Shown piece after piece: positions 7,581-20,205 of a stretch of DNA of 64,000 nt. The stretch comes from a virus: IMG/VR virus record IMGVR_UViG_3300025057_000004, positions 1 to 64,000 of that record; one strand, written 5' to 3'. Positions within the stretch are counted from its first letter, which is position 1. The number at the start of each line of letters is the position of its first letter. The position numbers were made by a program, and so were the translations under genes. A model generated the notes under the pieces. It was given only the letters and a program-made list of their open reading frames with translations. It did no database searches and had not been told where the DNA came from.

Positions 7581-9971
7581 TTACTTTATAGACTTTTCAG
7601 ATTTCATCCTTTCGATTTCCTCTTTAGATTCTCTATCAAGCTCATTTTGTTGTGCCTCGTGTTGCAATTCCTTAGAGAGTTTCTCAACATCTGCTTTTGT
7701 TTTAATGAGAGTATCTGAACTCTCGGTCATCTTAAGGTCTCTCTGAAGTTCAGCTTTTACTCTTTCAAGTTCAATCTTCCCATCATTCCTTACCTTCTCT
7801 AATTGCATTGCAATATCTGCTTTGAATTGCTCTGCCTGTTTATTTCCTTCCTGTCTCATCTGCTCAACCTGCTGCATTGCTTGTTGTTGCTGTGCTTGCA
7901 GTTCTTGCTGTTGTTGCATCTGTTGTTGTTGCTCCTGCAACTTCTGACGTTCAGCAGTTTCGATCTTACGTCTCACCGAACTGATACTCGGATCTGTCAT
8001 AATATCCATAATCTGAGAGAAGTTCACTTTATCATTCTGCAGTCCTGCCTGTGCTAACTGCATCAACATCTGTTGCATTTGAGAGTATTCAAGACTATTA
8101 TTCACAGTAAGACCGTAATCAATCTCACGTATCGCATTACCATCTATCTCAGAAAGCACCTGAGACATATCATCTGTAATGTACTGTACGTTGATCTTAC
8201 GTCCTCTGTATGCGTGTTTTGCAACTTCAAGTGCTGCCTTCAATACCGCAACCTTTATTCTATCGTGAAACTGAAAGTAAAGTTCAGTGATATGCGATGA
8301 CTGCATTACAGAACGTTGCGTGTTACCCACAAGCTCACTACTTGAGATAGCACCTTCTCTCTGACGACTTACACCTGAGATGTTACTGATCTCTTCTTTA
8401 ATAAAGTTAAGAATGTACATGTTCTGCTGCAGATAGTTACCCATATCAAAGTTCATAGGGCTTCTATTGGCATTCATGTTACCTGCAATCGTTCCAGTAG
8501 CTGCACCCTTACGTGCTTCTTTAAAAGAATCTATCGGTAACCATCCCATCTTATCTGCAAAGTAGAGTGCATCCTCTATCTCCCAACTTTCAGGAATCAT
8601 TGCAAGATCCAAGTATCCTACAACTCCCTTATGTTTAGTAAGTGTTTCCCATTGTTTGAACATCAAGAAGTCATAGTAGTAAGAGTAAGGCTTCATACGA
8701 CCCATCAATGATGTTGTCGGCTCACCTTCCTGTGTATAGTCACCACCTACATATGGACACAATGTACCTGTAGGGTTATTGATACCGTATGCCTTTACAG
8801 GAAACGGACGCATCTTAACAAAGATACTCTCACCGATACGTGTACCTTCCCACCAATCAGTTACCCAAATGTATTTCTCAATCTCCTCACCTCGCTCAAC
8901 ACGTGGTTTGTAGAACTCATCAACGAATCTGTATAGCTGCTCACCTGTCTTACGGTCATAATATTTTAGTTTACCGATCTTTCGATAAGACCTCCACACT
9001 ACACGTGTAACAAGAACAGCACCATCCTCACTGATAGGAGATAGTAACGTATCTGCTGTTGCAGTTGACGGTGTAAGATTACCATCTGCATCTTCGATCA
9101 TACTGAACGTACCTGCTACAAGATCTGGTTCTCTACCCTGTGCTACTGCTTCGTCAGCACCTGAGTTCATTGTAACACCCATTCTTTCTATTTCAGAGAC
9201 CTCATCACTTGTAAGATAATCAGAGTAGTCATCTACCACATTACCCTTTGAATGATAACCCCACTCAAGAATAATATCTGCATCCTGAATATCAGGTGAC
9301 TGACCCTTACGTATGATACGCACGTTTGCAGGGTTACACTTACGCACTCTTGGTTCACCATTTACAATGTCAAGTGCATACACCTCTCTACCTGCAACAA
9401 GACCGTCAAGGAATCCCATGTTCCACTTGTACTTCAGGTTCTCCTTCTCCATTATATGATTAAGTAGATCCGTAGCACGTTTCTCACGTATGTCCTGATA
9501 ATCATATCTTAGGTAGTTATCAAGTTCCTGTATCTTCTCAGCCATCTGATCCTGCGGTGTCTTAGACATCACAAACTCAAGAAACTGATCATTGATCATC
9601 TTTTTGATATCCTGCTCCTTTTCAGTTACAGCATCTTGATTAATGACACGTACTTTCCAATCAAACTTACGCTTCATCTCCTCACCAAGCAGTAGATTTA
9701 TCTTACTGTTTGCTACAGGGTAGTGTTGCGGTTCAAATGGAAAATCATTGTTGTTAATACCAAAAGGGTCACACATACTCAACATATCATCTGTGTTAAG
9801 TATATTATTGTAGAGATCCATGTTTGTACGGATCTCATAATAGTCATCACGGAAACTACCCGTGTAAAGTCCCATGTCAGAAGCTGCTCTTACACAACTT
9901 TCTGCCCACTTTTTATCTTTTTGCCGTTCTGTCTTTTTCTGAAACGGAAATTCTTCTTGTCCTAGTGTCAT
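7581..9971 (-). CDS. Portal protein
   Basis: 796 aa; KINLLLGEE, WWEGTRIG, ISGVSRQREG motifs; Q-rich coiled-coil C-terminus; directly after TerL. Confidence 0.9.
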   Translation of the reverse strand: MTLGQEEFPFQKKTERQKDKKWAESCVRAASDMGLYTGSFRDDYYEIRTNMDLYNNILNTDDMLSMCDPFGINNNDFPFEPQHYPVANSKINLLLGEEMKRKFDWKVRVINQDAVTEKEQDIKKMINDQFLEFVMSKTPQDQMAEKIQELDNYLRYDYQDIREKRATDLLNHIMEKENLKYKWNMGFLDGLVAGREVYALDIVNGEPRVRKCNPANVRIIRKGQSPDIQDADIILEWGYHSKGNVVDDYSDYLTSDEVSEIERMGVTMNSGADEAVAQGREPDLVAGTFSMIEDADGNLTPSTATADTLLSPISEDGAVLVTRVVWRSYRKIGKLKYYDRKTGEQLYRFVDEFYKPRVERGEEIEKYIWVTDWWEGTRIGESIFVKMRPFPVKAYGINNPTGTLCPYVGGDYTQEGEPTTSLMGRMKPYSYYYDFLMFKQWETLTKHKGVVGYLDLAMIPESWEIEDALYFADKMGWLPIDSFKEARKGAATGTIAGNMNANRSPMNFDMGNYLQQNMYILNFIKEEISNISGVSRQREGAISSSELVGNTQRSVMQSSHITELYFQFHDRIKVAVLKAALEVAKHAYRGRKINVQYITDDMSQVLSEIDGNAIREIDYGLTVNNSLEYSQMQQMLMQLAQAGLQNDKVNFSQIMDIMTDPSISSVRRKIETAERQKLQEQQQQMQQQQELQAQQQQAMQQVEQMRQEGNKQAEQFKADIAMQLEKVRNDGKIELERVKAELQRDLKMTESSDTLIKTKADVEKLSKELQHEAQQNELDRESKEEIERMKSEKSIK

Positions 9972-12307
9972 CTTCTTCTAATACGTTCTCTGATACTGAT
10001 CCTGTCTTCATCTACTTCCATTGGAATAAATCTTTCAGACATGCTCCTTCTATTTCTAAGAAAGAACGGATCAATCTGTTTTCGATTTTCGTTATTATCA
10101 ATAAAACCCTCTTCTTCTATGCCATACTTCTCAAGGTCAGCACGATAAATCAACACCATACCTAACGCAGAAATCCTATCGTAGTTTCCTACATACGGAT
10201 CATACGCTATCAGCTCTCTGAGCATTCCAGGTGATACTATCGTACTGTAGTTCCTCTCTCCCTCTTCTTTTCCGTAAGCTTGCTCCATAAGATACGACCT
10301 TATCAGACTGTTTCTCCATCCATTGACAGCCTTTGTCGTATGCGTACCTTTTGCAAAGTTACCGTAACCTGTTCTCTTTGTGATCTGCATATCACGCAAT
10401 ATCCCAGGTGTATCGCACAACATATACGTTGCATTTATTCTATCAAAATATTGGAACATACCTTTCTTGTTGTTCTCATAGTTGCAACGTGCATTGTAAT
10501 ATTTCATCAATCGGTAGCATATCTCGTAGAACTCCTCTGCCGTTCTTGGACGACCTGTATATTCTGCGACTATCCTACCTGTTAGACGGTTCATTATGAT
10601 AATACTCCCTAATGATGGTCCGACCGACATATCATCATCATAAGGGTCAGCTCCTGCTATATAGACATTTGGCTGTATATGACCATCTATCTCAACAGGA
10701 TGCTCAAATATCTCTACACACGAGGCAAGATCCTTGACATCCATAACAGGAAACTGTCGTATCGGGTAATTATCGCTCAGTTTCCAGTTTACCTCACCAT
10801 CTTGAAAGTAAAGCTTGACCTTCCATGTAGCATCTGTGTATTTCTTAGGATTTGTCTCCACCTCCGCAAGATGTATACGCATATCCTCTACATTGAACAG
10901 ATGACCCTCCTTTTTCATCATCGCCTCTTGCGGTGTGATGGAACGGTCAGCTTTTTCCTGTATCAAAGCGTTAGGATCGTCTGTACTGGTCGCAATAACT
11001 GCACGTGCATCAAAAACCTCTATCAATGCCTTTACAATATCAGAGTTACCATCTACATCGTAGCAACCTTCACGGTTCATATACTCACCGCAGTAGTAAC
11101 CGCACACTGTACCCTGTGGCATATTACGGTCAAACACGTTCGGTAACGCATAAATATTATATGCATCAGGTTTAGTGAACAATTCACGCATACCTGCAAA
11201 GTCAGCACCCTCTGTACCACCTGTACCCCATACTACAATGGTACCGAATGTCATTTTACCCTGCTCAACCGAAGGTCGTGCAATCGCATATGTCTTTTTC
11301 AGGTGTGGAAACTTTCCTGCCTCCTCAAACAAAAGCAGTTTACCCCTCTTTCCCCTTGCACGTTCTGGCTGACCTTTGGTAGATACACCGATTATCTCGG
11401 TCTTTATACCTTTTTCCGTCTTTGTTCTCGGATCTCTGTAGGATGCCCTCTTGTGGTCGTTCCTATCTGCATAATCACGTGACTTTCTCCACGGTGTATG
11501 GTTATCTATGAAGTTCAGTGTGTCCCATGCTTTAGATAAGATACCATCATCGTACAGATACTCACCTTCCGATGCTATCGCAAAAGACTTTGAACGTTTA
11601 AAATGGTAATAATTACGTGTACCCATAGAAGAACCCTTGAACGAGTAGCCTCTACCCCTTGTTTTCAAGTTTCCACAGTGCATACCACGCTGTTCTGCCT
11701 GTTCTACATAATGATACCATAGATAATCACTGTCCCATACTCTCGGAAAGTCCTCTACACGGTCAGCCTTTATGTTGCCTACCTGCTTTTCTAACTCCTC
11801 TGTAGATTGTGGTACCTCCTGTGTCATCAGTATCGGACAGTAATTCAGATACCAATAATAATAGCCTGGTATCCACTCACCATCAGAAGGTCGTATCAGA
11901 CCCTCTCTACATCTACGCTGTTCCTCTCTCCAAAACTTCATATAACGTGAAGACGGAAATCTATTGGGAACCAAGTCGGTATACTTACCGTACTTCTTAA
12001 AATACAATGCTCTCTCCCTGAAGAAGTCCATATCTTCAAGGATATGTGGAGATGTAATATCAACCTCTATCTTACCATCGTCATCCTTTGGCAGATCCTT
12101 TGCGTAAGGTCTGTTACTTGACAACATATTGTAAACAAAAGGTATCTCATCAATAGCCTGAATGATATCTGCACGTAACTCCTCATCTTCCAACGAGTTT
12201 ATACGCACACTCACATCGAAACGTAAGCTGTCAAGTAATGACCTCTCTTCGTGTGTATCAGTCTGGGTTGAGTTCTTCATCTTCAAATTCAGCTTTCTCC
12301 CTTCCAC
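9968..12307 (-). CDS. terL: Terminase large subunit (true start may be slightly downstream of 12307)
   Basis: Walker A-like LKTRGRGYS, Walker B LLFEEAG, coupling motif GTGG, nuclease motifs GADPYDDD and YDRISA. Confidence 0.92.
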   Translation of the reverse strand: MEGRKLNLKMKNSTQTDTHEERSLLDSLRFDVSVRINSLEDEELRADIIQAIDEIPFVYNMLSSNRPYAKDLPKDDDGKIEVDITSPHILEDMDFFRERALYFKKYGKYTDLVPNRFPSSRYMKFWREEQRRCREGLIRPSDGEWIPGYYYWYLNYCPILMTQEVPQSTEELEKQVGNIKADRVEDFPRVWDSDYLWYHYVEQAEQRGMHCGNLKTRGRGYSFKGSSMGTRNYYHFKRSKSFAIASEGEYLYDDGILSKAWDTLNFIDNHTPWRKSRDYADRNDHKRASYRDPRTKTEKGIKTEIIGVSTKGQPERARGKRGKLLLFEEAGKFPHLKKTYAIARPSVEQGKMTFGTIVVWGTGGTEGADFAGMRELFTKPDAYNIYALPNVFDRNMPQGTVCGYYCGEYMNREGCYDVDGNSDIVKALIEVFDARAVIATSTDDPNALIQEKADRSITPQEAMMKKEGHLFNVEDMRIHLAEVETNPKKYTDATWKVKLYFQDGEVNWKLSDNYPIRQFPVMDVKDLASCVEIFEHPVEIDGHIQPNVYIAGADPYDDDMSVGPSLGSIIIMNRLTGRIVAEYTGRPRTAEEFYEICYRLMKYYNARCNYENNKKGMFQYFDRINATYMLCDTPGILRDMQITKRTGYGNFAKGTHTTKAVNGWRNSLIRSYLMEQAYGKEEGERNYSTIVSPGMLRELIAYDPYVGNYDRISALGMVLIYRADLEKYGIEEEGFIDNNENRKQIDPFFLRNRRSMSERFIPMEVDEDRISIRERIRRR

Positions 12308-13955: not shown

Positions 13956-14178
13956 CTCTATTATTCATATAACGCATCTCTGCAACTCTTGGAACAAACT
14001 TACCAAGATGCCTTATATATACCGTTTTAAAACTTTCAATATCTTCTCTATCGCTACTACTGATCGTATCTTTGACAACCCTGAACTGATTCTTCCAAGC
14101 ACGTTCAATGATCGGCACTGCAATACCATGCTCTTTAGCAACTTCCTTAAGCAACCTATCAAATAACTCATTTTGCAT
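13936..14178 (-). CDS. HU/IHF-like DNA-binding protein
   Basis: Two N-terminal helices then VYIRHLGKF, like HU VxIxGFGxF; IHF-like genes are common in crAss-like late modules. Confidence 0.6.
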   Translation of the reverse strand: MQNELFDRLLKEVAKEHGIAVPIIERAWKNQFRVVKDTISSSDREDIESFKTVYIRHLGKFVPRVAEMRYMNNRDDKRDS

Positions 14179-14557
14179 TTCTTATTGTAAAATTGAAAAC
14201 AATACCATTCTTCTCACTTGGATACACTCTCAACCTTTCATGCAAATAGTTATCTGCATTCAGCAATCCATGCTTTCTCAAAGAGCTTAAACAATTTGCA
14301 AAGCTTGCCTCTGACATCTTACCTACAGCGTCTGCCATTTCTTGCTTACGCTCGTAGGAAAGTAACTCCCTCCATTTCTTTGGGTCTTCAGGATTCCTAT
14401 AATCCTTTGCTAAATTACTGTTCTGATACATGATCTCAGCAAGAACTTGCCTTTCCTGCTTACGAAGTTTGTTAATAGGCGACTGCACAGTCATCAACTC
14501 AACATACATATTAAAGAACGCTCTTTCGGTAGCTTTTAAATTATATACCTTCTCCAT
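14168..14557 (-). CDS. Winged-HTH DNA-binding protein (RepL-like/regulator)
   Basis: KQEMADAVGKMSEASFANCLSSLRKHGLL HTH-like segment. Confidence 0.55.
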   Translation of the reverse strand: MEKVYNLKATERAFFNMYVELMTVQSPINKLRKQERQVLAEIMYQNSNLAKDYRNPEDPKKWRELLSYERKQEMADAVGKMSEASFANCLSSLRKHGLLNADNYLHERLRVYPSEKNGIVFNFTIRNAK

Positions 14558-14574
14558 ATCTCTATGATTTCATG

Positions 14575-14605
14575 CAAATATAATACAAATAACAGGACAT
14601 GTCAA
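14575..14605 (-). promoter_or_regulatory. Bacteroidota housekeeping-sigma promoter for late/packaging operon
   Basis: Minus strand TTG(ACA)-N20-TATATTTG, 17 nt upstream of ATG 14557. Confidence 0.75.
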
Positions 14606-14646
14606 GAATGCTAATAAATTTCATTACAAATAAGGGTAAAAAAATT

Positions 14647-15066
14647 TTATTCAAACCTTTCAGAACCCATACTTATATCACCTTTATCTTGATTCCCCAT
14701 ATAAATATCATAACACTTCTCGTGAAACTCCAGACTAAGTACAACCTCTACATCTACATCCTTATCCCCATGATAAGTATACCTACCTTCAAGCATAACT
14801 TCCATAAGTCCTTCTTTGGGAGTAAATACAAAAGAAGAATACGTAATTAGCACAAGTTCCTGCTCATCCTCAACTATAAGTTCTCTTGTAAACTTATATC
14901 TTGGATATTCAAACTCGTGCTCCATTCTATCTTCAATGCCTTCCTCTCCCATTTTTTTTTGCATTTTGAAATTCACCTCGTAAAAACACTCGCTTTTGCG
15001 AGTCAAAAACTCAGACCTTATACCTACATCGAAGTTTTTGAGTATATCAATATTTACCTGAACCAA
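14647..15066 (-). CDS. Hypothetical protein (start uncertain)
   Basis: 139 aa acidic ORF with a non-ATG upstream start; internal Met starts possible. Confidence 0.5.
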   Translation of the reverse strand: MVQVNIDILKNFDVGIRSEFLTRKSECFYEVNFKMQKKMGEEGIEDRMEHEFEYPRYKFTRELIVEDEQELVLITYSSFVFTPKEGLMEVMLEGRYTYHGDKDVDVEVVLSLEFHEKCYDIYMGNQDKGDISMGSERFE

Positions 15067-15107
15067 CAGGAGTGGTTACCTGAAGACACAACTAAGAGGT
15101 ATATAAC

Positions 15108-15168
15108 GTCCCATTTGATCAACCTTACGGGGTTGCGCAGTCTTAGATACTGCATTCTCAAACGAGAC
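15108..15168 (-). ncRNA. Structured three-way-junction leader or small RNA
   Basis: 11-bp outer stem 15108-15118/15158-15168 with G-U pairs only on the minus strand, enclosing GCAGU/ACUGC and CAACC/GGUUG hairpins; begins just after promoter 15173-15203. Confidence 0.5.
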
Positions 15169-15172
15169 AATA

Positions 15173-15203
15173 CAAAACTAATACATCAAAGAGCGTTTGT
15201 CAA
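15173..15203 (-). promoter_or_regulatory. Bacteroidota housekeeping-sigma promoter
   Basis: Minus strand TTG(ACA)-N20-TAGTTTTG. Confidence 0.75.
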
Positions 15204-15334
15204 GTCTTTTCTAAAATTTTTTTTTAAAATTTTTTTGAGTAGCTGCGTGTGATGACCTCCATAACAAAAAGCCACTACTAAATTTTAGCAGCGGGAATAG
15301 TCCCGTTGCCGAACTTTTCACAATTATCAAAGCT

Positions 15335-15622
15335 ATGAGTAAAGAGCTAAAGTTTACAGATGAAGTCCTAACTGTCGCACAATTCAAAGCGAGTCAAGGC
15401 ACCGAGAGTATCGCGTTTGTTCGCAGCCCGAAAACCGACAAGTTGTTCGCGGCTGATGACGCAGGTAACACAATTGCAGCTGTTTCAGAGGCTGCAGTTG
15501 AAGCAGAAGAATTGCTCGTAACTCTCTGCGAAAGAGAGAACGCAGAGGGCAAGACTGAGCAGTTCTACCTGATTCACGCGAAAGGTAAGGGCGGTACGCA
15601 GAACGTTGAGAGAACCATCTAA
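15335..15622 (+). CDS. First early-region protein, hypothetical
   Basis: 95 aa; A-rich leader; GC-richer than its flanks; strong hairpins on both sides. Confidence 0.75.
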   Translation: MSKELKFTDEVLTVAQFKASQGTESIAFVRSPKTDKLFAADDAGNTIAAVSEAAVEAEELLVTLCERENAEGKTEQFYLIHAKGKGGTQNVERTI

Positions 15623-15673
15623 GGTTCCCTCAGCGGCTTCTGCCGTTTGAGCCAGTGCATCTATATGATGCAA

Positions 15674-15750
15674 ACACACAGACCGAAAGGAGTTGTTACG
15701 GTAAATGTGTGTCAGTGTTAGAAGAGCAGCAACTCCAAGCTGCTTTTCTA
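15674..15750 (+). ncRNA. Two-hairpin kissing-loop RNA candidate
   Basis: ACACACA/UGUGUGU plus ACCG/CGGU hairpin with loop GGAGUU, complementary to loop AACUCC of the 12-bp hairpin 15719-15750. Confidence 0.55.
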
Positions 15751-16024
15751 CCCTTTTGGGTATACAATAGTTTCCTACTATGTATCTAAATACATAGACT
15801 TTTAGCACCGTGTGAACAGGTGTATCGTTGTTCACAATATAACTATGCTTCCGACTATGAAGACATTTGTTATCGTCAACGGAGTAGTAACTCTTGTTGA
15901 GTACATCATTAACACTAACGCATAGTTAGTGTGATGTATTGAATCAGATTCGGAGTAAGTGAACACCAAATCACTTTCTTGGCAACAGAAATCTTAGGTA
16001 TTTGGAGAGAACCTTAATCTCTCC

Positions 16025-16086
16025 TGTATTAATGCAACTGAACATAGTTCAACGGTCACAAGTCCGTGTAAATGCAGAGTGGTACA
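16025..16086 (+). ncRNA. Twister self-cleaving ribozyme, type P1
   Basis: P1 UGUAU/GUACA; UAA cleavage loop 16030-32; P2 UGCA/UGCA; P3 UGAAC/GUUCA; P4 ACGG/CCGU with loop UCACAAGU; GAGUG strand; both pseudoknots pair (CAC:GUG and AC:GU). Confidence 0.9.
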
Positions 16087-16274
16087 AAAAGGTTATGAGT
16101 GTTAGACCTGTCTAACTTCCGTAGGGTCGCTACCTAAAAAACTCTTATTTGGTCGTTGTCAATTTGCTGTTAGACTGGTCATCTTATACCAACAGTGTCG
16201 TCAACCGTGATAACGGTACAGCAAGGGTAAGCAGTCCTTGCACTTTTTATTAACCTTTTAATCTATAATCTACT

Positions 16275-16628
16275 ATGCAAATAGAAGAGTTATTGGATAT
16301 AAAGGCAGAGTTGACCAATTCATTGCGTGATATCAATACAAAGATAAAGCAATATGAAGACGGTTATATCTACATTGTAGTAACCAGAGAATATGGTTCA
16401 ATCTGGTTTGATTCTTTCAAGAACAAATATGCATTGGAAGATTACATTGCAGACTACTATGGAGATAACGGAATCACTGAAGTGTATACCGATTATGATG
16501 CTGATATTGAGCATTGTGATTCAAGGTTCTACACTTTAGAAGATTTCACTGAATACTTAAAGGATATGAAATATTATCCTAACAGTGTTCAGAAGATTCT
16601 GTCTGAATATCCACAATTGAACAGCTGA
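16275..16628 (+). CDS. Hypothetical early protein
   Basis: 117 aa, ATG with A/T-rich leader. Confidence 0.7.
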   Translation: MQIEELLDIKAELTNSLRDINTKIKQYEDGYIYIVVTREYGSIWFDSFKNKYALEDYIADYYGDNGITEVYTDYDADIEHCDSRFYTLEDFTEYLKDMKYYPNSVQKILSEYPQLNS

Positions 16629-16838
16629 AAAGCGGGTTCGGAGCAGTTATGCTTGGCAACAGAAAATAACATTTTAATTTCTAACCGACTAATACAATAG
16701 CTTTGAAACACAAAGACAAACAATCATACTTTGATCTGTTGGTGTTGTTTGCACCAGCAATATTCTTTTTCATTTATCAACTCATTAAATGATGATACTT
16801 CTGTTCAATACTATTTTGGATGGTAAAATACTTTAGTC

Positions 16839-16873
16839 GGTCGCATTCCTTTTCGGAGGGTGTGACCTTCTTT
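16839..16873 (+). terminator. Strong hairpin/terminator-like element
   Basis: GGUCGCAUUCC...GGGUGUGACC stem followed by UUCUUU. Confidence 0.55.
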
Positions 16874-16955
16874 AAATCCACCAAATCAGGGTGGCTTTAT
16901 TAACCCTCGCAGATATAAACAAGCCATCACTGCGATAATATAAATTAAAGAGCCA

Positions 16956-17265
16956 GGTCGCTGGGATAGAGAAGACCATATAAATAACTATCCATTTTTA
17001 ACACGTCATAAGGTCGGTAAAATTCCGAATACGTTCGTGCAGAGCCGTGGGGAGCGGAATGTAAAAACCCCAAACAAGTGTAAGCCAGAGTTATGTTTGC
17101 TCTCAGACAGGAGTCCATACATCTAGGTGCCCTGATGGACTTAGCAAGGAGAATTTGAGGGATAATGTAAAAATGGACAGGCAACGATCCGTTTATGTAA
17201 CTCTGGCAAACACTTACTTTACAATAATTCTCAAGTAATAATGTATGGTCAGGCCTGAATCGACC
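16956..17265 (+). ncRNA. Multi-stem structured RNA candidate (~310 nt)
   Basis: Nested long-range stems 16956-60/17261-65, 16974-82/17242-50, 17076-81/17210-15, 17084-95/17196-207, 17111-18/17135-42, 17171-77/17188-94; G-U wobbles on plus strand. Confidence 0.65.
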
Positions 17266-17348
17266 ATTGCAATACAATGACTGTTTGGCGTGTCATTGGC
17301 ATTATCACTTGTCAATATATATTTTATAAACCCTTTAATTCATACATT

Positions 17349-17654
17349 ATGAATGCGCTTAAAGAAATAGAACCGTTTATTAATGAGATCCAAGCTATTA
17401 CTGTACAGCACTCTGATTTCAGTTGGGATGAAGATAATCTTAAGAGTTATACTCTTTATCCTGATTATACTCCTGAAGAATTTGAAGATTTCAAAGACTT
17501 TATGAACTTTGAATATGATAACGGTTACGGAGCACAGGAATTATACGGTACTATCTGGTTTAAAGACGGTACTTGGTGTACTCGCGGAGAGTATGACGGT
17601 AGTGAGTGGTGGGAACATCACGAAAGACCTGATATTATTACAAGGGAGCGTTGA
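17349..17654 (+). CDS. Hypothetical early protein (likely start MNALKEI at 17349 rather than 17277)
   Basis: YDNGYGAQELYGTIWFKDGTWCTRGEYDGSEWW segment; leader aaaccctttaattcatacattATG resembles other early-gene leaders. Confidence 0.7.
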   Translation: MNALKEIEPFINEIQAITVQHSDFSWDEDNLKSYTLYPDYTPEEFEDFKDFMNFEYDNGYGAQELYGTIWFKDGTWCTRGEYDGSEWWEHHERPDIITRER

Positions 17655-17728
17655 TCGCTCTCTTGTTTCTACATAAGGTTAAGCAATAGACCTATCAACT
17701 TATTGCACAATTTATACAATACTATACA

Positions 17729-18055
17729 ATGAAATTTACTTACACATTTCCAACACGATTCTGGGACGCAGCAGCAAATTGTCTTAGTGAATCATTAAGA
17801 GCACTATCATTTAGAATAAGTCACAACACTGAAGGCAAAGTAAACCTTGATGCATCAGTGTTTACAATACTTAAAGATGATTTTCAAGGTGTTCAGGTCA
17901 ACTTAGCCTTTGTTGTTAAAGATTCATTGGCTCCTAAAGAGATCAAAGCTATTCTTGAAGAGATAATCTATCTTGAAAAGAATCTTGAAAAAGATGTTGA
18001 AAGGTCTGATAAAAAAGCAAATCAATTACACGAAAAATATTTTAAAGTAGCATAA
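17729..18055 (+). CDS. Hypothetical protein
   Basis: 108 aa ORF in early operon. Confidence 0.6.
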   Translation: MKFTYTFPTRFWDAAANCLSESLRALSFRISHNTEGKVNLDASVFTILKDDFQGVQVNLAFVVKDSLAPKEIKAILEEIIYLEKNLEKDVERSDKKANQLHEKYFKVA

Positions 18056-18056
18056 G

Positions 18057-18260
18057 ATGGAAACAATAGCTAAAAGATTCTTACTGTTCATCGGTATTAG
18101 TTCATCACCTATGTTAATAGTCACTGCGATGTGGCTATTAACTGTAGGTTACTTTAATTGGCTTGATGCAATACATTCAGAAGTATATGGTGTATTCACA
18201 TCATTCTGTGTGTTCTTTGCGTTCTTTGTGTCATTAGTTATACCTTCAAACGAGCTGTAA
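18057..18260 (+). CDS. Small two-TM membrane protein
   Basis: Two hydrophobic segments in 67 aa. Confidence 0.6.
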   Translation: METIAKRFLLFIGISSSPMLIVTAMWLLTVGYFNWLDAIHSEVYGVFTSFCVFFAFFVSLVIPSNEL

Positions 18261-18261
18261 T

Positions 18262-18501
18262 ATGATGGCAAGACCTAATTTCAACAGAGGAGATAATGAG
18301 AGCTACATCAGCTCTCTTATTTCCCAACATGGTTACAAAGACATAGGATGGTCAAACAGTGGTGCTGATTTCAGTAAACCACTTGACCCTATTATAGGTG
18401 CTGAAGAAATAGACTGTTCGTTGTACAGTTTCAGATGCACCAATATGGTATACGTCAATCATCTTACACGTGAGATACTTCACGTTGACATGAGTGATTA
18501 A
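18262..18501 (+). CDS. Hypothetical protein
   Basis: 79 aa, tightly packed with neighbours. Confidence 0.6.
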   Translation: MMARPNFNRGDNESYISSLISQHGYKDIGWSNSGADFSKPLDPIIGAEEIDCSLYSFRCTNMVYVNHLTREILHVDMSD

Positions 18502-18504
18502 TTG

Positions 18505-19009
18505 TAAGAGGGGTCAAATGACTTCTCTTATTTCAAACCTTTTAATTACAATAAAATGAAATACTTAATTCTTAGTTTATTACTGCCATTGGTGTCTTGC
18601 TCAAAAGATACAGAACCAGGTTTATTCATCATTGATGTTTATGAGCAAGACAACATCAATACTATGTCATTTGTATTGGACATAGAAACAGAACCGTTTA
18701 CATACACAGAAGATTTCTTGCTTGAAGTTGTTGTGATAGCAAAGCCTATCATTGATGTATCTTCAGAAGAAGCATGGCTTGAGTCAGTAAGCAGACCTAC
18801 CTATTATAAAGCAATAGGTATCACTTGTCAGGATCTGATGATGTGTAACGGTAAACTTGTGCACGGGTTAGGTTATAGATTTGATGAGAACTTTGATTCA
18901 GATCTGTACTATATTACCTTTGATGTGTTGACAGAACAAGATTATATAGAGAGGGTCGATTGACCTTCTCTTATTTTAAAATCTTTAATTACAATAAAAT
19001 GAAATACTT
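18505..19009 (+). repeat. Duplicated hairpin plus translation-start unit (18505-18566 and 18948-19009)
   Basis: Related GGGTC...GAC hairpins, each followed by the identical 26-mer TTTAATTACAATAAAATGAAATACTT at 18541 and 18984. Confidence 0.85.
18556..18963 (+). CDS. Lipoprotein
   Basis: MKYLILSLLLPLVSC signal peptide II with lipobox-like Cys. Confidence 0.7.
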   Translation: MKYLILSLLLPLVSCSKDTEPGLFIIDVYEQDNINTMSFVLDIETEPFTYTEDFLLEVVVIAKPIIDVSSEEAWLESVSRPTYYKAIGITCQDLMMCNGKLVHGLGYRFDENFDSDLYYITFDVLTEQDYIERVD

Positions 19010-19860: not shown

Positions 19861-19929
19861 AAACCAAAACAAATAAGAGGAAGCTGAAAATCTTGAATAG
19901 AGTAGGCATACATCATCTTATAAAAAATT

Positions 19930-20205
19930 ATGAAAGATGAAAGTAACATTTTACAACACGTTCCAGTTACTACCGAATGTAGTATGGATACAAGAAACGA
20001 AGGAAGTAATTATTATGTTACCGTTCTATGGAACTTTCTGTTTAGAACGTTAACATTTGTAATGTCAATAGGGTTAACAGCACAGTTTTATTACAATCTT
20101 ATGTGTGATCAACCTGCCAGTAAAGCATTTGCATACATGATGATGTTTGTATGTGCGGTGATTTTACTATCAGATCTTCTTGTCTATGATGAAGAAACTG
20201 ATTAG
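19930..20205 (+). CDS. Small two-TM membrane protein
   Basis: Two hydrophobic helices in 91 aa. Confidence 0.55.
   Translation: MKDESNILQHVPVTTECSMDTRNEGSNYYVTVLWNFLFRTLTFVMSIGLTAQFYYNLMCDQPASKAFAYMMMFVCAVILLSDLLVYDEETD

Follow-up and report, generated by a model that had tools for sequence, protein, structure and literature searches.

The 64,000-nucleotide stretch of DNA analysed here (the window) comes from the 88.9-kb genome of an uncultured, marine crAss-like phage, whose TerL (9968-12307, minus strand) and portal match crAss-type families, TerL being at most about 40% identical to that of known crAss-like phages. The stretch from 45 to 64 kb is occupied by two giant reading frames (2093 and 4161 aa), and the DNA occurs in marine and seawater metagenomes; a search for near-identical DNA with positions 14000-19000 against 50,697 phage records gave no match, and a tRNA search of the window found none. 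The ribozyme described here lies on the strand of its flanking genes, within a small-gene block beginning at 15335 (Table 1). The original prediction placed it in an early region, a name we keep by analogy with a single phage, phi14:2. Excerpts of bioRxiv 10.1101/2020.03.07.982082 describe long, highly transcribed early intergenic regions in phi14:2, and the ribozyme of the window likewise lies in a gene-poor and RNA-rich stretch among the first rightward genes, although phi14:2 differs from the window phage in giving no match to the twister-P1 model and none to the hatchet model.

Table 1. Features of the ribozyme locus; positions are those of the window except for the hatchet, which lies in a related contig
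Feature	Position	Strand	Basis
95-aa gene that opens the plus-strand block	15335..15622	+	Homolog in L243, BLASTP E 2e-16
Conserved 22-codon gene, MKTFVIVNGVVTLVEYIINTNA	15857..15925	+	100 nt upstream of the twister; codon-position differences; alignment A2
Spacer, small gene to ribozyme	15926..16025	+	Sequences, folds
Type-P1 twister ribozyme	16026..16085	+	RF03160 full-model match; homologs in 11 further contigs; pair counts
P1	G16026-U16029 with G16082-C16085	+	Sequence
Predicted cut-site dinucleotide	U16030/A16031, then A16032	+	Aligned to consensus UAA
P2	U16033-A16036 with U16073-A16076	+	Sequence
L2 dinucleotide AC, T2 partner of G16062-U16063 in the P4 loop	16037..16038	+	Complementarity, co-variation
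P3	16039-16043 with 16047-16051	+	Sequence
P4, loop UCACAAGU	16052-16055 with 16064-16067	+	Sequence
Loop CAC, T1 partner of G16079-U16080-G16081 in GAGUG	16057..16059	+	Complementarity, co-variation
GAGUG	16077-16081	+	Sequence
Non-coding module of ~160 nt, optional, closed by a terminator-like hairpin	16087..16246	+	Terminator-like site; homologs
Leader motif TTATTAACCTTTTAATC	16247..16263	+	11 nt before the ATG of the 117-aa gene; directly after the twister in relatives
Cargo gene, 117 aa, P0001, no family match	16275..16628	+	Homologs after the twister in L332, L326, L335
Second copy of TTCGGAG...CUUGGCAACAGAAA (14-mer 16652-16665)	16637..16679	+	Right border of the 688-nt block
Hatchet ribozyme RF02678	L250:4759-4961	-	55.4 bits, cut-off 51

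The Rfam twister-P1 model, RF03160, aligns over its full length (model positions 1-68 of 68) to 16026-16085 on the plus strand with 56.7 bits (E = 5.8e-12 for 801 nt searched and 4.5e-11 for 6.2 kb), and this is the sole twister-P1 match in the whole 88,919-base virus record (E 1.5e-13), so that a covariance-model check returned a significant match for the ribozyme originally predicted. Type-P1 twister self-cleaving ribozymes are reportedly described in Roth et al. 2014, and the locus is a further example of this known RNA type, no new ribozyme. Read 5' to 3', it is GUAU-UAA-UGCA-AC-(UGAAC AUA GUUCA)-ACGG UCACAAGU CCGU-GUAAA-UGCA-GAGUG-GUAC, and has the type-P1 helix order (P1, P2 and P4, with P3 optional and the ends in P1). 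Sequence, coordinates and the full-length model alignment thus agree that every type-P1 element proposed for 16025-16086 is there, with the ribozyme proper at 16026-16085, since the outer pair U16025:A16086 is present in only three of ten lineage relatives. The predicted cut between U16030 and A16031 is supported by the alignment to the consensus UAA, and U16030-A16031-A16032 is invariant among the ten lineage homologs.

The minimum-energy nested fold yields P1-P4 both for the ribozyme alone and in a 350-nt context, where the twister fold is present in the minimum-energy and the centroid structures. The fold energy of the ribozyme itself is unremarkable against shuffles (z -1.51, with 16 of 200 shuffles folding as well), as expected when the pseudoknots go unscored, and that of the 350-nt context is no better than shuffles; because the energies of the twister, its context, the 3' product and three of four upstream products all resemble those of shuffles, folds are used here for shape only.

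The score of 56.7 bits falls short of the Rfam gathering cut-off for RF03160, which is 67.2 bits, so default, routine Rfam annotation passes over this twister. A default Rfam run on the window reported only a DUF805b motif (19874-19908, plus strand, 47.4 bits, above its own cut-off); this motif ends 22 nt 5' of a reading frame starting at 19930. The shortfall can be traced to particular base pairs. The window shares the helix order, the U-A cut site, the P4 loop, the two pseudoknots and GAGNG with the type-P1 twister (RF03160; structure as given in part in PMC5408937), and it differs from the consensus in having A-U for G-C in a T2 pair and A-U for C-G in the middle T1 pair. These subtype pairs cost about 10 bits and so take the window under the curated cut-off. 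The conserved L1 and L4 letters are otherwise matched: the three exceptions are one G to A in L2 and, in the loop, one C to A and one C to U, and all three keep pairing through their partners, the C-to-A change pairing with the U of GAGUG.

As described in PMC5408937, two bases of the P4 loop pair in T2 with the conserved GC of L2, and T1 joins the P4 loop to internal loop L1 by three Watson-Crick pairs. In the window T2 is A16037:U16063 and C16038:G16062, and T1 is C16057:G16081, A16058:U16080 and C16059:G16079, all of them complementary. The AC:GU replacement in T2, read originally as a compensatory change and a mark of selection on structure, is accompanied by a second matched change, in T1, where CAC:GUG replaces CCC:GGG. 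At least 113 viral stretches, many of which are twisters, share the loop 14-mer of the window ribozyme. We drew a co-variation set from viral contigs carrying, among the matches listed, either this 14-mer or the consensus loop 14-mer, using a type-P1 parse that fixed neither the dinucleotide of L2 nor the central base of GAGNG (55 distinct twisters, a spurious second parse in L243 being left out). Among the matches listed, all 24 twisters with a loop U have AC, and 29 of the 31 with a loop C have GC; for T1, all 31 with a loop A have GAGUG, and all 24 with a loop C have GAGGG. The T1 or the T2 change stands alone, without the other, in seven of the 55.

An alignment of these matches (A1) gives the same picture. 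At the T2 pair (columns 18-65) GC occurs 20 times, AU 17 times and another combination once, 17 rows being gapped at T2, and at the middle T1 pair (60-85) AU occurs 31 times, CG 22 times and others twice. Over the alignment, in which the aligner displaced three rows at the 3' end, 90.7% of the cells are paired among the matches listed as compared to 69.6% when shuffled, with none of 500 shuffles as high, and slid partners give 23-43%. Since the parse demanded P2 and P4 pairing, the free tests are P1, T1 and T2 only. The matched changes co-vary across the 55 twisters among the matches listed and hence are real evidence for structure, so both pseudoknots pair as proposed; the AC:GU change is real, but its claim to be special does not hold, as AC:GU marks a common phage subtype and is not a private event of this genome. 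The A-U/A-U combination of the window is likewise common in viral contigs. One unrelated viral contig (L081:5216-8644, plus strand) holds seven matches to the twister loop 14-mer at a spacing of 270-810 nt, each just ahead of a ribosome-binding site and an ATG; these look like permuted twisters set at intervals along a small-gene operon.

Relatives of the window phage were collected as 80 TerL-related loci, of which 50 were searched for twister-P1 over the entire record and the other 30, mostly short contigs, were scanned as loci with the loop motif; hatchets were sought in the whole records of 46 TerL-related loci and four others. Two relatives, L242 (TerL 86%) and L243 (TerL 80%), carry a homologous twister at 56.2 bits each, and at E <=0.001 the model had no match in any of 50 other crAss-like records, four of these at least 97% complete. 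Within the lineage, twisters score 26.8-58.1 bits, with E <=1e-10 except in L337 (2.4e-09) and in insert or changed-junction variants. Ten could be aligned; 96.1% of their cells are paired and the core is invariant, the innermost P1 pair being U-G in seven, U-A in two and C-G in one, with two P3 pairs altered on both sides in L331 and one broken P4 pair in L337. The twisters of L330 and L338 have a P3 insert of about 95-105 nt around an intact core; L330 is the one at 26.8 bits by twister-P1, and L338 went unreported at E <=0.1 and was recognised by eye. A scan of L234, L236, L244, L239 and L240 with all Rfam families at E <=0.01 gave nothing.

A very small gene precedes the ribozyme. The original prediction took the upstream stretch for a non-coding structured RNA, but besides any RNA this stretch holds a conserved 22-codon gene with third-position variation: differences at codon positions 1, 2 and 3 number 32, 15 and 81. 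Positions 15806-15940 are more conserved than the neighbouring genes, and the 22-residue product, MKTFVIVNGVVTLVEYIINTNA, is hydrophobic. The frame is present in nine of 81 loci scanned, constant in position and strand; a search of metagenome contigs with profile A2 found 17 loci, one of which is the contig of L243, and the same search of viral contigs gave only contigs already known, so that TerL-related and metagenome loci combined make 25 distinct contigs with the gene. Next comes the spacer, in which GAAUYAGAUUCGGAG is conserved. It also includes a hairpin region carrying UUGGCAACAG (14-mer, 15978-15991) and, directly adjoining P1, a hairpin of seven pairs (16004-16024). Measured from the stop of the small gene, the spacer of L242 is 59 nt long and that of L243 114 nt, and the hatchet of L250 is preceded by 63 nt.

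What occupies the slot beyond this gene varies. A twister is found there in 12 of the 25 contigs, 59-114 nt past the small-gene stop, a hatchet in one, neither ribozyme in eight, and the 5' part of a twister only in two, the remaining two (L238, L324) being too short to read at the slot; these counts are not independent events, as L246/L248, L333/L334 and L336/L337 are near-identical. Eleven of the slot twisters are recognised by the model (the window, L242, L243, L325, L326, L330, L331, L332, L335, L336 and L337) and the twelfth, in L338 with its P3 insert of about 105 nt, by eye only. The hatchet is the only one in 50 records searched and lies in L250, whose TerL identity is 62%; its conserved blocks are aligned, with a long insert in a variable stem. 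About 1.1 kb beyond it (L250:3257-3662, minus strand) lies a GOLLD-like RNA (62.9 bits, cut-off 150, E 5.6e-14). The first gene of L250 resembles P0002 by eye, and we dropped it as a homolog when BLASTP gave no alignment.

In the eight ribozyme-free contigs (L246, L248, L323, L327, L328, L329, L333 and L334) the slot holds a second type of hairpin followed by a conserved terminator-like hairpin homologous to window 16823-16879. A lax Rfam scan of the L248 slot found no ribozyme, and a twister-like string in L248 was dropped as a divergent ribozyme for want of model support. After the terminator-like hairpin, L333:668-921 and L334:349-602 (plus strand) match a permuted tmRNA at 61.7 bits (cut-off 47). 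The two partial twisters break at different points. In L234 (TerL 93%) the twister stops after the 5' strand of P4 and jumps to other sequence, which in L243 follows the first downstream gene, so that L234 has undergone a deletion. In L240 the first 11 twister bases, through the 5' strand of P2, are followed by other sequence and the contig ends 57 nt later; after the 11 bases (L240:1-60, minus strand) come CC and a hairpin with loop UUCCCAAGG, whose GG could pair with the CC, and L240 may be a different twister variant cut by the contig end.

Downstream of P1 the sequence diverges among twister contigs from the first base on. The window continues with a module of about 160 nt that closes with a terminator-like hairpin at 16221-16241 and a T run, to 16247; L335 has this module whole and L330 its first ~110 nt. 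It is absent from L332, L326, L242 and L243, in which the twister runs directly into a gene leader; for instance, in L332 and L326 the twister is followed by leader TTTATAAACCTTTTAATC, about 10 nt, an ATG and a homolog of the 117-aa gene. The module has no Rfam match, an exact 16-mer from it occurs in two unrelated viral contigs and nowhere else in that search, and shuffles fold as stably as 16031-16250 does (z -0.09). The leader motif, TTATWAACCYTTTAAT, recurs at 17324-17340 and 18531-18547 (plus strand) and in L243, L242, L332 and others, and it stands about 10 nt ahead of the start codons of several small genes. Its reading as a sigma-70 or Bacteroidetes-type promoter was dropped, the simple scan having fitted only the copy at 17296-17323; the motif may be a promoter of some kind, a signal for translation or the border of a cassette. 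Viral contigs yielded no relatives of P0001, and neither P0001 nor P0002 has a PHROG match. Other cargo genes follow the twister in L325, in L336/L337 and in L243/L338, and in L331 it is followed by other non-coding sequence.

The element TTCGGAG...CUUGGCAACAGAAA occurs twice on the plus strand of the window, at 15942-15991 and 16637-16665, and bounds a 688-nt block that comprises the twister and its gene. In contigs without a twister the CUUGGCAACAGAAA hairpin comes right after the small gene, and in RNA-library contigs from two runs of a single study 15948 is joined directly to 16637, the twister and its gene being omitted. The window therefore looks as if a twister-led cassette had been set in front of the arrangement that lacks a ribozyme, and this arrangement is still present at 16637-16879. 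The 57-nt hairpin with a T-rich tail at 16823-16879 (plus strand) is 89-96% identical even at 60% TerL identity (L254-L256, L246, L248); it is terminator-like yet, by this measure, conserved beyond a terminator's needs.

Assembled contigs of four metatranscriptome runs are mostly those of relatives that skip 15949-16636; one 142-nt contig joins 16058-16090 to 16191-16239. The terminator search of the window called no site from the end of the small gene (15925) to the twister (16026), which leads us to suppose that transcription arrives from upstream; L242 has a clear terminator before the small gene and none after. Four predicted upstream cleavage products end, by fold prediction, in a paired 3' end, and the spacer-product fold energies are no better than shuffles in three of the four, L250 being the exception. 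Among type-P1 twisters in viral loci, 29 of 50 are found no more than 40 nt from the stop codon of a frame on their own strand, as compared to 14% of random positions, the frames being crude ones of at least 50 aa and not called genes. For phi14:2, bioRxiv 10.1101/2020.03.07.982082 reports no common early-promoter motif.

The explanation we regard as reasonably probable is that the twister is a functional processing joint that uncouples the conserved small-gene unit from variable downstream cassettes. A plus-strand transcript starting upstream of the 22-codon gene would contain the twister, which would fold into P1-P4 with pseudoknots T1 and T2 and cut itself between U16030 and A16031. The upstream product would be the small-gene message, ending in a 2',3'-cyclic phosphate a few bases past a hairpin, and the downstream product would begin with a 5'-hydroxyl inside the ribozyme fold and carry that phage's cargo: in the window, the ~160-nt RNA with its terminator-like hairpin, the leader and the 117-aa gene. 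Because such a cut parts the small-gene message from variable cargo, the ribozyme would be a processing joint. Its identity and structure are clear from the model match and the co-varying pairs, and its position after the small gene is conserved, with 12 of 25 small-gene contigs carrying a twister, one a hatchet and eight the terminator-like hairpin only, while the cargo varies. Transcription through the site, cleavage and effects on RNA stability are what we infer from this arrangement. Twister of type P1, like hatchet, cuts at its 5' edge. Excerpts of PMC8782182 place the hatchet cut at the 5' edge and the 5' end of the twister 3' fragment buried in the fold, and PMC6765202, in the part available, mentions processing of polycistronic RNA as a proposal for bacterial ribozymes. 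Judged from the contigs, the ribozyme is dispensable and has been repeatedly lost or broken, eight contigs being without it and L234 and L240 having it broken. A counter-point is that the leader motif, if it were a promoter, would free the downstream genes from dependence on the cut.

Alternatively, the main purpose might be the release of a discrete RNA of about 215 nt, with its 5' end at 16031 made by the twister and its 3' end by the hairpin at 16221-16241, close to the original proposal that the cut releases or defines adjacent structured RNAs. On the upstream side of that proposal lies the stretch with the small gene, and on the downstream side are the module and its terminator-like hairpin with a T run at 16221-16247, a module that also follows the twister in L335 and, for its first ~110 nt, in L330; phi14:2, moreover, makes abundant early non-coding RNAs according to excerpts of bioRxiv 10.1101/2020.03.07.982082. 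We nevertheless consider release as the main purpose rather unlikely, as only two of 12 twister contigs (the window and L335) have the whole module and L330 has part, L332 and L326 have the same twister and the same downstream gene without it, the fold of 16031-16250 and the Rfam search are unremarkable, and the exact 16-mer recurs in only two unrelated viral contigs. Release may hold for the window, L335 and partly L330, and there it may be true alongside the processing joint.

That the ribozyme, active or recently so, is a passenger or recombination joint, kept mainly as a patch of homology for cassette exchange and not for any advantage that the cut confers, would account for flanks that switch exactly at its edges, for contigs broken within it (L234 past the 5' strand of P4, L240 past that of P2), for the repeat-bounded 688-nt block of twister and gene missing in relatives and for the eight contigs without a ribozyme. 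Homology alone hardly explains a different ribozyme class in the L250 slot, however, and in ten homologs the core is invariant and the P1 and P3 changes keep pairing while the flanks diverge, all of which makes this account quite improbable in our view. We give still less credence, and indeed very little, to a non-cleaving chance look-alike or dead relic: the score lies under the gathering cut-off and the fold energy is not significant, but set against these are an E of 1.5e-13, consensus letters that are matched or, for the three that deviate, paired with matching partners, and 11 further contigs that conserve the twister with changes that keep pairing.

We may speculate further, and with clear reserve, that in this marine lineage the 60-115 nt beyond the 22-codon gene are a dedicated RNA-end slot, filled by a terminator-like hairpin, a twister or a hatchet. 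Here the ribozymes would substitute for a terminator while allowing read-through, ending and protecting the small-gene message as polymerase enters swapped-in cargo, and their conserved sequence would double as a joint for cargo exchange.

In engineered insulators of the RiboJ type, variable upstream RNA is removed by a self-cleaving ribozyme that borders the gene on its 5' side; the window twister differs in being natural and of another ribozyme class, and an insulating effect here would be presumptive only. Genetic contexts shared between ribozyme classes are said to have been noted by Weinberg in 2015. PMC8782182 likewise states that ribozyme classes share genetic contexts; the hatchet of L250 (RF02678), unrelated to the twister in fold and sequence, is like it in occupying the same slot on the same strand as the small gene with a 5'-edge cut (PMC8782182, in excerpt). 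Twisters near phage genes are already known from what PMC6765202 and PMC13725137 give in excerpt, and the ribozymes near phage genes treated in the accessible part of PMC6765202 are likewise intergenic and on the same strand as small phage genes. As compared to these, the window slot is anchored to one 22-codon gene, so that twister, hatchet and hairpin states can be compared within one lineage. Several ribozymes per operon are often found, as in L075, L081, L183 and L188. Our literature search found no paper linking crAss-like phages with self-cleaving ribozymes.

The curated Rfam cut-off overlooks a common phage twister subtype. The locus also offers a natural comparison, in which close relatives have, after one and the same small gene, either a twister (whole or broken), a hatchet or a terminator-like hairpin, and the cargo beyond varies; it makes testable the idea that ribozymes end one message while transcription continues into exchangeable genes. 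In the excerpted text of PMC6765202, the roles of bacterial and phage self-cleaving ribozymes, which number in the thousands, are still described as open; if the slot after the 22-codon gene is indeed one for RNA ends, twisters of bacteria and phages would have a definite function.
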